A stretch of 64,000 nt of DNA from an uncultured Micavibrio sp. (GCA_964478225.1 CAYZHM010000003.1:64632-128631), one strand, 5' to 3'. Counted from the stretch's first letter, positions 51,258 to 57,851 are shown. Notes: generated from the sequence alone by a model not told the origin. Numbers and translations are program-made.

Positions 51258-51689
51258 TCACACCATCTCAAAAACTGGTGTCTCAAAAACTCGATGCATA
51301 TCTACCTGAGGACCTATAACATCTTGCATTGAATACAATAAATAATCTTTGCCAAATATTTCGTTTTTTCCGCGCGTTTGAACGGCTTGTGGCAAATATG
51401 GATATGTTTGAAAAACAACCTGATCAACATAAAATTCCAAAATCTTTGGAAGGCATGCTCTATCCCCTGATTTCCATTCAGGAACATTAGAAACATCCAT
51501 GGACTTCAAAGCTTCATACCCCTCCTCGATCGCATAAAAAAGATCTTCAGGCAATTCAGACTTTGCGCTCCAAGGATCCCCTGGCCAGTAATCATAAAGC
51601 TGGTATTTTTGAATAATTCCTTTCAAAAACTCATAATCAACAGCCAAACTCGCCAAGGCTGCATCATATTCTTTGCGGGTAATCTCCAT
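51258..51689 (-). CDS. Hypothetical 143-aa protein between sucD and sucA
   Basis: AT-rich ORF, acidic and rich in aromatic residues (W/Y/F), no recognisable motif. GGAG about 8 nt upstream of the ATG. Confidence 0.5.
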   Translation of the reverse strand: MEITRKEYDAALASLAVDYEFLKGIIQKYQLYDYWPGDPWSAKSELPEDLFYAIEEGYEALKSMDVSNVPEWKSGDRACLPKILEFYVDQVVFQTYPYLPQAVQTRGKNEIFGKDYLLYSMQDVIGPQVDMHRVFETPVFEMV

Positions 51690-53832: not shown

Positions 53833-54022
53833 AAGAGGTCGACTCCGCTCTACAGGTTAATTTCGCCTTTGTTTTAGCATCTTAGCGGCCATTTGCAAGC
53901 GCGAAAACCGCCAATTTTTGAATTGTTAGCCTTTTTTGTGCTAAAATGAAGTCAACAATAAAAAAACCTTGAAAAATGTAAATAAATCAAGGGTAAACGG
54001 TAAAAAATAGAGGTGCGGGTGT

Positions 54023-55471
54023 ATGGCGAATAACCCCACGCAAAGTGATAACTTATTTGCACCCGAAACAAAAGCGGGTGAGGACGCACGTCTAGAGGGC
54101 GAAAAGTCAGGTACACTGAATTTTTCAGGCCTGAATGTCACCGCTGAAAGCACTCACAAAAATGAGCAAAAGAAAAAGGACGAAGATTACCGGGCCCGAG
54201 CCTACGCTAATCTGTTGCTCAATGGCCTTGCTGAACAATTGCAAAGAATTGAAGAAGAAATTGAAAGACTGGAAAGCCAGCAGAACAGCCTTGAAAAGAA
54301 AATCATAGAAACCGAGAGCAGCATTTTAGCAGCGAAAGAAGTTCATGCTGCTTTAAAAGGCGATCTACATGAAACATCGGCAGACGTAAAAGAACTGGCC
54401 AAAAAAGATACAAAAATAGCCGAAACTCAAAAAGTAACCGAGCAAGAGTTCAAACAAGCCCAAATAGAACTAGAAGAAGCAGAGAAAAAACTTGCTGAAA
54501 TTGAAAAGCAACCCGACACAATTAACCCTCTAACCGGTCAGGCTCTGGTTAAACAAGAAGATGGAACCATTCTAACAATCGATGAAAATGGTGAAAAAGC
54601 CGAAGTCGATACTGTAACACAAACATTAGCTTCAGCCGCTGCTTATCTAGGCCTTGTAGAGGTAAAAAGCGATGACGCCGCGATCAAAAAAACGCTTGAT
54701 CAGTGCGGAGAGGATTGCCAGCGTTTGCAAACCCATATCGAAAGCCTAAAAGAACAACGCGCGGCAAACACAGATAAAATCGAAAAAAGCAACGAACTCA
54801 TTGAGCAGCTCACTGCAAAACTTGAAAAAGAGCAGCAGGACATAAAAGCACAAACGGAAAACCTGCAAGAAATGCATCAAGAAAATAAAGAACTTATTGA
54901 CGCAATCAAAACCAAGAAAGCAGAAGCAGAAGAAATTAGAGAACAAATTAAAGAGAAAGAAGAAGAGCTAGGACTTTTAAAGGAAGAAGACCAAACCCTG
55001 ACAGATAAATTTAACTCTCTGAACAACACGCTTAATCTCACGCACGAACAAATTGCTGAAAATCAGGGATGGGGCACAATGACTCTTGAGCGCAACGAAG
55101 CCTTTGCTGCGCTTGAATCAAAGATCCTCGATCGCATAGAAGGCGGATCAATCCCATCATCAGAATTAAAGCACCTTCTCTCTGACAGCTCAGAAGCATT
55201 ACGTGCCAGAGTGGAATCCATGCTCGATCAACGCGGGATTGAGGTCATAGAAAACAAATGGGGGATTGGCAACTATCAACCTATTGCTGAAACCAATCCA
55301 AATACACCGCGCATTGAGGGTCACGCCAACGAACTCACCTCCAACGACCTCACAAACACAATCCATGAAGAGTTTAAACGCGCCGCATCGGAAATCACAA
55401 AAACACTTAAACCCGATGAACCCAAACCGGTTGAACCAAGGCACACACAAACAATGGGGTTAGGCGCATGA
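54023..55471 (+). CDS. Long coiled-coil protein (E/K/Q-rich)
   Basis: 482 aa. Heptad-like E/K/L/Q-rich sequence over roughly residues 60-330. No signal peptide. Confidence 0.6.
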   Translation: MANNPTQSDNLFAPETKAGEDARLEGEKSGTLNFSGLNVTAESTHKNEQKKKDEDYRARAYANLLLNGLAEQLQRIEEEIERLESQQNSLEKKIIETESSILAAKEVHAALKGDLHETSADVKELAKKDTKIAETQKVTEQEFKQAQIELEEAEKKLAEIEKQPDTINPLTGQALVKQEDGTILTIDENGEKAEVDTVTQTLASAAAYLGLVEVKSDDAAIKKTLDQCGEDCQRLQTHIESLKEQRAANTDKIEKSNELIEQLTAKLEKEQQDIKAQTENLQEMHQENKELIDAIKTKKAEAEEIREQIKEKEEELGLLKEEDQTLTDKFNSLNNTLNLTHEQIAENQGWGTMTLERNEAFAALESKILDRIEGGSIPSSELKHLLSDSSEALRARVESMLDQRGIEVIENKWGIGNYQPIAETNPNTPRIEGHANELTSNDLTNTIHEEFKRAASEITKTLKPDEPKPVEPRHTQTMGLGA

Positions 55472-56778
55472 GACCTCCAATCAATCTAAGATCGATATTT
55501 AATTCCAACAGCTATGGCGGCAACGCCTTTGGAAACAGTTTTTTTAATTTCGGCGGAGGCAACTCCATCAACCTCTCGCAAAATGGAATCCGCTTGAATG
55601 TCCGTGAAGGAGGCCTGAGACTAAGCCCAAGCCTCTACCAATACGGCAACAACCCAGCGCAATTCCGATTAAATGGCAGCTTCTATCCCGAGGGCGGATA
55701 TTATGGCCGCAACGCAATCCATTTTAATCACAATGAAGTTGGTGGCATATCGCGAAATAACGTTCGGCTCAATCTGGGCGGCTCTGGCTTCAGATTAAAC
55801 CCTAGCATTTATCAATATGGCGACAACCCAGCGCAATTCCGATTAAACGGCAGCTTTTACGGACCTGGTGGCTACGGTTACCAAGGTCCATACAGAAATG
55901 GCTTTGGTTATGGCGGGGGAGGCTTCAGCGGTGAAAGTGGATATAGCGGTCCTAGCGGGATTTACAATCAAGGCGGGTTCCGAGGGCAGTTAAATTTTGG
56001 TGGAGGCTTGGGTTTCCCCCTGAACCCTTCCTATCTCAATAGAGGCATGAACACCAATCCGCCTTATTTCCTAACGCCCAATCAATTACGGCCAAATTAC
56101 GGCCCACCGCCCTATTTACAACAGCCGCTTCCTATCCAACAGCCGAACGTTAGAGCAACACCTCCGGCAGAGCCTCAGCCCCCTGAGGTCACGCAGGCTC
56201 TGCAAGAAAGAAACGCACGGCGCAACGCAGCAGTAATAGGCACACCTCATTTCGAGCGCCAAGAAAACGAAATGCCAATGAATTTCACCGACTCCGTCAA
56301 AGGAATTTTTGGTGTTCTTAATAAATTTCTTGATGTCTTTTTCGAATTTTTCAGAGATCCCGAAGAAGCTCAGTTCAAAGCAAAACTTTTTTTCCCGACA
56401 AATGAAAAAGAGCAAAGATTAAGCGACACTCAGGACAGATGGCGCGGCACCACAACCGAAAACTACATCAAGATGATGGACAATGAAGGCCCTGGATTAA
56501 CGCGCACACGCCGCCAAACATCACAAAGCAATCCAACTGCAGTCAGCGCCAATTCACGCAATGCGTTTAACCAGGCTGCACCGAACATAAGCGTACCACA
56601 TGTCAATACGCCAAGCATTTCCAACAACGGACCGGTCAGCCCGAGCAATGCTTTTAATCAGGCCGCGCCGAACAATACGAGTGTGCCGCACGTTAACACG
56701 CCAAGCCTTCCGCAATCGAGCACACCGCCAACCAACACGCCTCCCGTACCGCCATCACCATCGGGAACCACCCCCTAA
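55468..56778 (+). CDS. G/N/Y/P/Q-rich low-complexity repeat protein
   Basis: 436 aa, ATGA overlap with the coiled-coil gene. 58-aa in-frame repeat (..RLN..GG.RL.PS.YQYG.NPAQFRLNGSFY) and 29-aa C-terminal repeat (NAFNQAAPN..SVPHVNTPS). Confidence 0.55.
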   Translation: MRPPINLRSIFNSNSYGGNAFGNSFFNFGGGNSINLSQNGIRLNVREGGLRLSPSLYQYGNNPAQFRLNGSFYPEGGYYGRNAIHFNHNEVGGISRNNVRLNLGGSGFRLNPSIYQYGDNPAQFRLNGSFYGPGGYGYQGPYRNGFGYGGGGFSGESGYSGPSGIYNQGGFRGQLNFGGGLGFPLNPSYLNRGMNTNPPYFLTPNQLRPNYGPPPYLQQPLPIQQPNVRATPPAEPQPPEVTQALQERNARRNAAVIGTPHFERQENEMPMNFTDSVKGIFGVLNKFLDVFFEFFRDPEEAQFKAKLFFPTNEKEQRLSDTQDRWRGTTTENYIKMMDNEGPGLTRTRRQTSQSNPTAVSANSRNAFNQAAPNISVPHVNTPSISNNGPVSPSNAFNQAAPNNTSVPHVNTPSLPQSSTPPTNTPPVPPSPSGTTP

Positions 56779-56855
56779 CCCCTTCCCTCTCGACATAACA
56801 GCTTACCGCGCGTACAATCGCGGGGGAAAGATTCATTCACAAGGGGAAATACATC

Positions 56856-57851
56856 ATGAAAGCTCCAGTTAAAGTCGCCGTCACCGGCGCAGCAGGTCAA
56901 ATCGGCTACGCTCTTTTGTTTCGCATCGCCTCCGGCGCCATGCTTGGCCCGGATCAACCGGTCATTCTTCACATGCTCGAAGTAACCCCGGCTCTCGGCG
57001 CACTCAGTGGTGTCATCATGGAACTAAACGACTGCGCGTTCCCATTGTTACACGGCACAGTCGCAACAGATGATCCAAATGTCGCATTCAAAGATGTCAG
57101 CTACGCCCTTCTCGTCGGCGCCATGCCCCGCAAAGACGGCATGGAACGCAAAGATTTGCTGACTGCAAATGGCGGCATCTTCGGCCCACAAGGAAAGGCG
57201 CTGAATGATCACGCCAAGCGCGATGTTAAGGTTTTGGTTGTCGGTAACCCGGCAAATACAAACGCCCTCATTGCTCAGCAAAACGCACCTGACCTGGATC
57301 CAAAATGCTTCACCGCAATGGTTCGCCTCGATCACAACCGCGCGATGAGCCTGCTCGCCGAAAAAACCAGTGCGCACTCCACCGACATTCAAAAAATGAT
57401 CATCTGGGGCAATCACAGCTCGACGCAATATCCCGATCTGCATCACTGCACCGTCAAAGGCAAACCCGCCATGCCGCAAGTTGATCAGGCCTGGTATGAA
57501 GGCACTTTTATTCCACAAGTCCAACAGCGCGGCGCAGCGATCATTAAGGCACGCGGTGCATCTTCTGCTGCTTCCGCCGCCAGCGCCGCAATCGACCACA
57601 TGCACAGCTGGGCATTAGGAACACCCGCCGGTGACTGGGTCTCCATGGCCGTACCATCCGACGGCTCCTATGGCATCCCGCCCGGTGTCATCTACGGCTA
57701 TCCTTGCGTGTGCAAGAACGGCAAATACGAAATCGTACAAGGGCTCGACATTAACGAGTTCTCCCGCGCCCGCATGACGGCAACGGACAAAGAGCTTCGC
57801 GAAGAAGCTTCGGCCGTTCAGCATTTGTTTGGAAAAGCAAAGGCCGCCTAA
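56856..57851 (+). CDS. mdh: Malate dehydrogenase (cytosolic/MDH2-type)
   Basis: [28 protein letters not shown]-terminus. The 331-aa length and GNPANTNA motif are typical of the non-LDH-like MDH clade. Confidence 0.95.

Follow-up and report, generated by a model that had tools for sequence, protein, structure and literature searches.

In Caulobacter, SpmX couples a lysozyme-fold domain to a proline-rich disordered region and membrane helices, and the succession of an N-terminal tail, a helix and a lysozyme domain recalls both the bitopic MltG-type enzymes and the signal-anchor-release (SAR) endolysins. Coiled coils are combined with disordered regions in polar scaffolds of Alphaproteobacteria such as PodJ, and these phase-separate in vitro (PMC8980812). 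Bacterial prion-like domains are typically sporadic within their range (PMC6400439). Here we describe two adjacent genes, A and B, located between sucC and mdh in a 64,000-nucleotide stretch of the genome of an uncultured Micavibrio sp. (GCA_964478225.1 CAYZHM010000003.1:64632-128631; the whole stretch is hereafter referred to as the window, and the genome, as G000). A encodes a coiled-coil protein, and B a mostly disordered protein of extreme composition. In function, the pair most resembles the PodJ, PopZ and SpmX scaffolds together with membrane-tethered lytic transglycosylases, and it is a member of none of these groups.

We consider it plausible, if somewhat short of an even chance, that A and B are an enzyme-less derivative of a family-specific, fast-evolving module lodged between sucC and mdh, that is, a cytoplasmic coiled-coil scaffold and an adaptor derived from a lytic-transglycosylase anchor. 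In its fuller form, the module would encode a long antiparallel coiled-coil protein of the cytoplasm (A) and one or two B proteins, in which a disordered tail at the N-terminus precedes a short hydrophobic helix and a lytic domain of the lambda-lysozyme or SLT type; an SLT protein bearing a signal peptide (C) would often be encoded as well. The scaffold would hold the cytoplasmic tails of weakly membrane-anchored lytic transglycosylases and thereby restrict peptidoglycan cutting to a given place or time, possibly with CtrA-type timing. In G000, the catalytic domains and C are absent from the locus and the putative anchor helix is amphipathic; the N-terminal tail of B would have been enlarged by duplication into a 231-residue region rich in G, N, Y, F, R and P. 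A would then act as a cytoplasmic, membrane-peripheral scaffold and B as the adaptor, with its aromatic/arginine 'sticker' region and twice-repeated tail peptide supplying multivalent binding.

With PodJ, PopZ and SpmX, the locus shares the combination of coiled-coil and disordered regions and the hints of CtrA-type control, found in five genera that carry the module, but A and B show no sequence similarity to any curated family. Compared with SpmX, the domain order is reversed in the B counterparts (tail, helix, enzyme), where the lysozyme is of the lambda or SLT type and not T4-like; B of G000 has no lysozyme fold, and A, predicted to form one hairpin-like coiled coil, has neither a membrane nor a periplasmic part. 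The B counterparts resemble MltG/MpgA-type enzymes and SAR endolysins in their layout, with a lysozyme-type domain preceded by an N-terminal tail and by a helix that is rich in Gly/Ala/Ser and weakly hydrophobic. However, their catalytic family is of the lambda-lysozyme type or SLT and not YceG, their helix lies 30-90 residues from the N-terminus and is of borderline hydrophobicity, and B of G000 has no enzyme.

Counterparts of the gene pair in related genera

The preliminary description of the window, made from the sequence alone, reported two open reading frames (ORFs) of 482 and 436 residues joined by an ATGA overlap at 55468-55471. Both are present (Table 1), and their order and overlap support an arrangement for coupled translation. 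The pair lies on the plus strand, next to sucC on the minus strand, and mdh stands directly 3' of B, at the place where C would sit in the fuller modules. Neighborhoods of mdh or of the B domain were fetched from related genera (other numbers with G denote relatives within the family, and numbers with L, fetched stretches or contigs), and sucC was reached in G001, G009, G014, G047 and G094. In these five genomes, a coiled-coil ORF of 450-1122 aa is divergent from sucC, the same position as that of A in the window. The order of a coiled-coil gene followed by a helix-bearing gene is found also in G002, G007, G011 and G015, and G013 has the coiled-coil ORF only, so that a helix-bearing B and/or C follows the coiled-coil ORF in all genomes of Table 2 other than G013.

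Table 2. Lengths of the module proteins in the family relatives
Genome	A	B	C
G001	502 aa	157 aa	none
G002	450 aa	163 aa	292 aa
G007	716 aa	440 aa (SLT)	none seen
G009	655 aa	349 aa + extra 227-aa ORF	none seen
G014	487 aa	none	310 aa
G013	839 aa	none seen	none seen
G011	1122 aa	393 aa	320 aa
G015	825 aa	395 aa	382 aa
G047	719 aa	337 aa	321 aa
G094	625 aa	365 and 410 aa	none seen

Relatives recognizable by sequence are few. A word-indexed search of 5.8 billion proteins with A, B, and residues 335-482 of A returned the queries themselves only, tblastn-type searches of 40 related genomes with A and B yielded nothing real, and pattern scans of metagenome contigs gave no match. HMMER, run with B only over 1.84 billion representatives, detected one relative, P0003 (246 aa), and no relative of B with a catalytic domain. 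P0003 is encoded in a 1633-nucleotide metagenome contig (L031), 17 nucleotides downstream of the C-terminus of an A homolog and followed by mdh, all on the same strand. The similarity is confined to residues 348-482 of A (38% identity, E 2e-27) and to residues 261-347 of B, the sole part of B with a database relative. The preliminary description, which took a lack of conservation anywhere else as an argument against itself, had proposed a search for homologous gene pairs in other genomes; such pairs exist, L031 keeping the A-B-mdh order and positional counterparts being present in at least 11 genera. Nothing in P0003 corresponds to residues 1-204 of B, and the protein hence has no G/N/Y/P region; for this reason, the low-complexity region is probably a gain on the branch of G000, although the comparison involves two sequences only, with loss in L031 as the alternative.

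While the neighboring mdh is 79-87% identical across the relatives, the A counterparts are unalignable between genera, showing 16-20% identity when alignment is forced. A hidden Markov model (HMM) of eight positional A counterparts recovered its own members only, in 121 family genomes. By eye, small motifs are seen across the counterparts: an E-K/R-rich patch before arm 1 of A, with the basic patch of A (Table 1) recurring before or at this arm; a beta-hairpin-like break with D-x-x-G-x-x-x-Y motifs similar to those in the tip of A; and the sequence xDP(D/E/G) at the end of the helix of B. We infer common descent of the module from these motifs, the common architecture, and a position and gene order that are fixed; it appears much less likely that unrelated coiled-coil genes were inserted independently at one and the same place in about a dozen genera. 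As a side observation, mdh runs in the same direction as A and B in G000 and L031, but it is convergent with the module in G001, G002, G009, G011 and G015. A classical LDH-like mdh is found in the same neighborhood in G047 and G094, which suggests that the cytosolic-type mdh replaced it within the family; since these two genomes have the module as well, the module appears to be older than this replacement.

The B counterparts share a layout of a disordered tail, a 14-20-residue hydrophobic helix and a lytic domain. The helix ends with xDP(D/E/G) in several of them, at the same position in the counterparts of L031, G047 and G094, and with FFRDPE in B of G000. The lytic domain is of the lambda-lysozyme type in G015 and G009 (matches to the endolysin family phrog_90 with E 1.6e-29 and 1e-12, respectively); a profile of B from G009, G011 and G015 matches lambda lysozyme in the PDB (3d3d/1am7, E 8e-4), and the B proteins of G047 and G094 were assigned by a family search with that profile (3e-36 or better) and by motifs read by eye. 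B of G007 has an SLT domain (Pfam, E 5.5e-7), as does, read by eye, the second paralog in G094. Phage lambda lysozyme and phrog_90 are the best matches of the C-terminal domain in G009, G011 and G015, but the match is seen in these relatives only, not in B of the window, and the genes are at a fixed chromosomal place and not in a prophage. B of the lambda-lysozyme type was detected in 34 of the 121 family genomes (21 of 60 genera), compared with 2 of 301 genomes sampled across the class. Given that B counterparts in other genera carry lysozyme-type domains, the A-B pair falls into a peptidoglycan-remodeling context. B has no enzyme domain in G001, G002, L031 and G000; B of G000 matches neither SLT (PF01464) nor the lambda type in Pfam, NCBIfam or PHROGs. 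C, which is often a secreted, signal-peptide-bearing SLT protein where present, is also missing from the locus in G000 and G001.

Elsewhere in G000, a 269-aa SLT-like protein (C5:77445-78254, plus strand; ESSFNP...SGLYQFIKSTWL) with no obvious signal peptide is the sole relative of C, at 28% identity. The two paralogs in G094 (L038, 4190-5422 and 6195-7292, both on the minus strand and about 770 nucleotides apart) share the N-terminal tail (SISFA...SAPRPG.SFN...SEKPA) and the hydrophobic helix but differ in the lytic domain, SLT in one and of the lambda-lysozyme type in the other, which looks like a swap of catalytic domains on a constant anchor.

The helix itself varies. It is strongly amphipathic in G000 and L031 (hydrophobic moment 0.57-0.64, 4 charged residues), more uniformly hydrophobic in G007, G015 and the first G094 paralog (G094a; 19-residue Kyte-Doolittle means of 1.56-1.73), and of weak hydrophobicity in G009, G011 and the second G094 paralog. 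For some of the enzyme-bearing forms, a signal anchor or a releasable, SAR-like anchor is possible.

An alternative that we consider unlikely is that A and B, along with the lytic B and C proteins of the relatives, are exported by a non-Sec route (such as flagellar type III or type I) or by phage-like release. Outside the cell, they would serve as surface or matrix structures, or else as agents akin to bacteriocins or virion lysins, and their divergence would reflect an arms race. The very fast divergence beside a conserved mdh would suit such a role, but the place between core genes is fixed across genera, and the module includes no export, immunity or phage structural genes. As the preliminary description had noted, no signal peptide is visible in A or B when the N-termini are read by eye, and yet the lytic domains must reach peptidoglycan; C, however, has its own Sec signal peptide, which fits ordinary periplasmic housekeeping. 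The lytic domains best match virion-associated lysins (an internal virion protein with an endolysin domain and a baseplate/tail lysozyme), but no tested A counterpart matches any PHROG family, and B of G000 has no killing or lytic domain. The predicted shape of A, a long arm with a tip, is in line with export, with a weak Foldseek match to colicin Ia at rank 35 that is not significant, and the G/N-rich disordered N-terminal regions resemble colicin translocation domains. FlhA is present in 25 of the 25 relatives tested, and G000 encodes RTX-type type I substrates. A surface fibre exported by a dedicated route, as suggested in the preliminary description, finds no support at the locus, where there is no signal peptide, no neighboring export gene and no curli-like motif.

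Large proteins with RTX-like GGxGxD/GNDxL repeats are encoded in G000 at C5:21415-26064, C8:64626-69149 and C1:654580-657081 and are presumably type I secretion substrates. Two further ideas were discarded. Relatives with split and with fused forms of the helix protein and SLT, along with the FlhA in all relatives, prompted the idea of a FlgJ/SltF-like rod cap, which was dropped as there was no match to the Rod-binding profile and the locus is away from flagellar genes; an origin of A from a tape-measure or internal virion protein was rejected since no tested A counterpart matches PHROGs.

TTAA-N7-TTAA is the CtrA consensus. Six independent perfect boxes of this type were found in the fetched neighborhoods, estimated at about 200 kb. 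Five of the six are in spacers of the module, three of them upstream of A (in G001, G002 and G009) and two upstream of C (in G014 and G011); the remaining box is inside an addA-like gene of G004. Their occurrence in five genera is a hint of timing tied to the cell cycle or to motility. The 64-kb window contains no perfect box, compared with 1.4 expected.

Several results weigh against the derivation of A and B from this module. An all-versus-all comparison detected only the G000-L031 pair, leave-out HMM and single-sequence searches missed A of G000, and hhalign of the B profiles paired the helices with only E 0.24, which is not significant. Statistically supported homology to module members is thus found for L031 only, and the putative link between G000 and the other genera rests on position, order and architecture. 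The hydrophobicity of the helix is borderline for a membrane span (19-residue Kyte-Doolittle means of 0.6-1.73), so the proposed topology could be wrong. There is no CtrA-type box near A in G000, the sole nearby site, with one mismatch, being inside A. Finally, the frame in the low-complexity part of B is not resolved by codon-usage scoring (0.04 bits/codon); because this scoring is made uninformative by the odd amino acid composition, coding status was judged by open-frame shuffles and by the proportions of differing silent (pS) and replacement (pN) sites between repeat copies.

Coding status, repeats and predicted structure

Residues 1-231 of B are truly coding: of 20000 shuffles, none preserves the open 231-codon frame, and over the same codons 9-18 stops occur in each of the other reading frames, five in all. 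The 58-residue in-frame duplication at a 174-nucleotide offset, reported in the preliminary description, was confirmed as a direct repeat (55612-55685 versus 55786-55859, 84% identical over 74 nucleotides), with 33 of 35 bases identical, by hand count, in the core coding for NPAQFRLNGSFY; in the 35-codon core of the repeat, pS is 0.67 and pN is 0.17. The C-terminal repeat NAFNQAAPN..SVPHVNTPS is real as well, but the offset given for it, 29 aa or 87 nucleotides, applies to the first half, whereas the second half is offset by 90 nucleotides due to a one-codon indel. In the 19 codons of NAFNQAAPN(I/NT)SVPHVNTPS, the two copies show 10.5 silent versus 1.5 replacement differences (pS 0.82, pN 0.03), that is, the tail peptide is conserved and the silent sites are saturated. 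Because pS is far above pN, both duplications are old and have been kept at the peptide level, and the repeats of B are under purifying selection. A mis-assembled repeat was rejected as very unlikely, the copies being only 84% identical and differing mostly at synonymous sites.

The same data disfavor a reading of A and B as relics left after the loss of the enzyme domains and the SLT gene, with the low-complexity region being neutral slippage junk, which we regard as very unlikely. Although B of G000 has no lytic domain and is followed directly by mdh where C would sit, B without an enzyme domain has persisted in L031, G001 and G002 as well. Against the lack of a CtrA-type box and the weak coding score of the low-complexity part stand two intact ORFs, with a Shine-Dalgarno-like sequence and the ATGA overlap, and, in the two repeat pairs, a pN much smaller than pS and almost saturated silent sites, as in old duplications kept as peptide.

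The extreme composition attributed to B in the preliminary description is borne out, B ranking second for a G/N/Y-rich 100-aa window among the 3744 ORFs of the genome. Residues 1-231 contain 19% G, 14% N, 10% P, 16% aromatic residues and 19% N+Q; there are 36 aromatic residues, with a mean spacing of 5.9, and 21 charged residues, 16 of them basic (Arg/Lys) and 5 acidic. Strand-like motifs of the hydrophobic-RL(N/S) type occur six times in the region, which also has one tract of [G/S]Y[G/S]/RG and another of P/Q/Y. The sole ORF that exceeds B in G/N/Y lies outside the window (C10:18378-25481, minus strand) and encodes a repetitive, adhesin-like protein of 2367 aa, with about eight repeats of about 200 aa (ITVDFGDDGIGGFKWNG...DHPDATNPDD...GFGMDISDADGDT) and, at the C-terminus, about 270 aa of G/L/S-rich low-complexity sequence.

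A single-sequence AlphaFold2 (AF2) model of B (mean pLDDT 42.7) is mostly disordered, with weak strands at the hydrophobic-RL(N/S) motifs and a helix at about residues 273-308 as the sole confident element (pLDDT 80-86). No match to B was found in Pfam, NCBIfam, PHROGs or PADLOC. Membership in the curli-type, CsgA-like proteins is not indicated either, the N-terminus of B (MRPPINLRSIFNSNSYGG) having no hydrophobic core and no Pfam match (csgG-type accessory genes were not searched for), and the repeats of B are of the hydrophobic-RLN type, unlike the curli repeat S-X5-Q-X-G-X-G-N-X-A-X3-Q.

Judging by composition, amyloid or condensate behavior of B is plausible, AF2 predicting only disorder. 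That the low-complexity domain is a self-templating amyloid or phase-separating domain that builds, together with A, a polar matrix or condensate with no role in the cell wall seems improbable to us, although such behavior would be compatible with the module reading. The abundance of aromatic residues, arginines and N+Q, with few acidic residues, is the sticker-and-spacer pattern of FUS-type domains, but the basis of this view is composition only, and the proline content of 10% and the regular arginines speak against a Q/N prion core of the classic kind. The six hydrophobic-RL(N/S) motifs could form an Asn-ladder beta structure, and the repeats are under purifying selection; however, the nearest relative works without a low-complexity domain, and the family context points to peptidoglycan enzymes. 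B resembles FUS-type domains and the prion-like domain of Clostridium botulinum Rho in its G/S-Y-G/S motifs, N/Q content, spaced arginines and scarcity of acidic residues, but it has no RNA-binding or Rho domain joined to it and is high in Pro and Phe, the likeness being one of composition only. A lineage-specific gain of such a region fits the sporadic pattern of bacterial prion-like domains and is not unprecedented because such domains are known and typically sporadic (PMC6400439). A more elaborate scenario, in which residues 1-231 are a recent self-assembly domain, FUS-like sticker-and-spacer or an Asn-ladder beta-solenoid, that grew on the former tail of a lytic-transglycosylase anchor and forms an A-organized condensate or fibre, appears doubtful.

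The AF2 model of A (mean pLDDT 66.9) comprises two long helices, residues 37-162 and 216-347, with pLDDT of 80-97, separated by a tip with strands at residues 174-194 of low confidence; disorder is predicted for the first 40 residues, and confidence is lower in the C-terminal third. A is therefore not almost entirely heptad-like, as had been described: a simple heptad scan covers only about 65% of it, in the two arms, the rest being the disordered N-terminus, the small beta tip and a C-terminal part of 130 residues outside the coiled coil. A Foldseek search with the model gave no significant match. Because the best target fits are antiparallel coiled-coil arms of SMC (5nnv, TMt 0.87-0.93, ranks 14-20), the model suggests that A is a hairpin-shaped antiparallel coiled coil with a small tip.

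Apart from this superposition and weak NCBIfam and PADLOC matches to the arms, A differs from SMC, MukB and Rad50 in having no ATPase head or hinge and in scoring far below the family cut-offs (33.7 bits versus 729), and the likeness is generic to antiparallel coiled coils. Matches to SMC, Rad50, EzrA, JetC and others in Pfam, NCBIfam and PADLOC are all sub-threshold and confined to the coiled coil, so that A falls into no curated family: for SMC/Rad50/MukB, only residues 41-388 match, with 20-34 bits against cut-offs of 567-1087, and for the crescentin/intermediate-filament-like rod (PF19220), the score is 9.6 bits against a cut-off of 100. A role in a defence system was rejected, the PADLOC matches being to coiled-coil arms only.

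Features and surroundings of the locus

The positions of the features discussed above, and of candidate expression signals, are collected in Table 1. Since mdh has a promoter-like site of its own, it need not be co-transcribed with A and B; there is no terminator-like site after B on the plus strand. An Rfam search of both strands matched no RNA family.

Table 1. Features of the A-B locus (window coordinates) and CtrA-type boxes in the relatives (coordinates in the fetched stretches)
Feature	Position	Strand	Basis
Sigma-70-like promoter candidate for A-B, TTGAAT-18-TAAAAT with TG extension	53918..53947	+	consensus match only
Shine-Dalgarno-like GAGGTG, 7 nt 5' of the ATG of A	54010..54015	+	read from sequence
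Gene A, 482-aa acidic (pI 4.8) coiled-coil protein	54023..55471	+	ORF, heptad scan, AF2
A arm 1, predicted helix, residues 37-162, opening with basic patch EQKKKDEDYRARAYANLLL	54131..54508	+	AF2, heptad scan
A tip, Pro/Gly break with predicted short beta strands, residues 163-215, DGTILTIDENGEKAEV	54509..54667	+	AF2
A arm 2, predicted helix, residues 216-347	54668..55063	+	AF2
A C-terminal helical and disordered part, residues 348-482	55064..55468	+	alignable to L031
ATGA, start of B overlapping stop of A	55468..55471	+	sequence
Gene B, 436-aa basic (pI 9.7), mostly disordered protein	55468..56778	+	ORF, composition, AF2
B low-complexity N-terminal region, residues 1-231	55468..56160	+	composition, AF2, relative alignment
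58-aa repeat copy 1, residues 36-93	55573..55746	+	
58-aa repeat copy 2, residues 94-151	55747..55920	+	
B conserved core, residues 261-347	56248..56508	+	44% identity to P0003, E 4e-8
B helix region, residues 273-308, with predicted amphipathic helix SVKGIFGVLNKFLDVFFEFFRDPE	56284..56391	+	AF2, hydrophobic moment
B C-terminal P/S/N/T-rich tail, residues 346-436	56503..56775	+	composition
Tail repeat copy 1, NAFNQAAPNISVPHVNTPS	56560..56616	+	
Tail repeat copy 2, NAFNQAAPNNTSVPHVNTPS	56647..56706	+	
Promoter-like site for mdh, TCGACA-17-TACAAT, 10/12	56790..56818	+	consensus match
Perfect CtrA-type boxes	L021 3946-3960; L022 3646-3660; L024 2649-2674; L025 9792-9806; L028 5949-5963		

On the minus strand before A are sucA, a 143-aa orphan, sucD and sucC; on the plus strand, A and B are followed by mdh (56856-57851) and a PEP-CTERM-like gene, and then by a DUF2336/SpbR-like gene on the minus strand. 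The orphan between sucD and sucA (51258-51689, minus strand) is an acidic, aromatic-rich ORF with no match in Pfam or NCBIfam.

Significance of the module

What is new here is the context, a hypervariable, family-restricted module that splits mdh from sucC. If our reading of the pair is wrong, the locus would still be a clean case of orphan genes whose context can be recovered only via synteny. If it is true, the classical mdh-sucCDAB cluster would be split in this family by an undescribed module that pairs a hypervariable coiled coil with anchored lytic transglycosylases. G000 would then show the outcome of enzyme loss with the scaffold and the anchor kept, the tail of the anchor having grown into a eukaryote-like low-complexity domain under purifying selection. 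The enzyme-bearing, the enzyme-less, and the enzyme-less forms with a low-complexity domain would constitute a natural series, which would bear on the origin of disordered, possibly phase-separating bacterial domains and on the positioning of cell-wall hydrolases by scaffolds.

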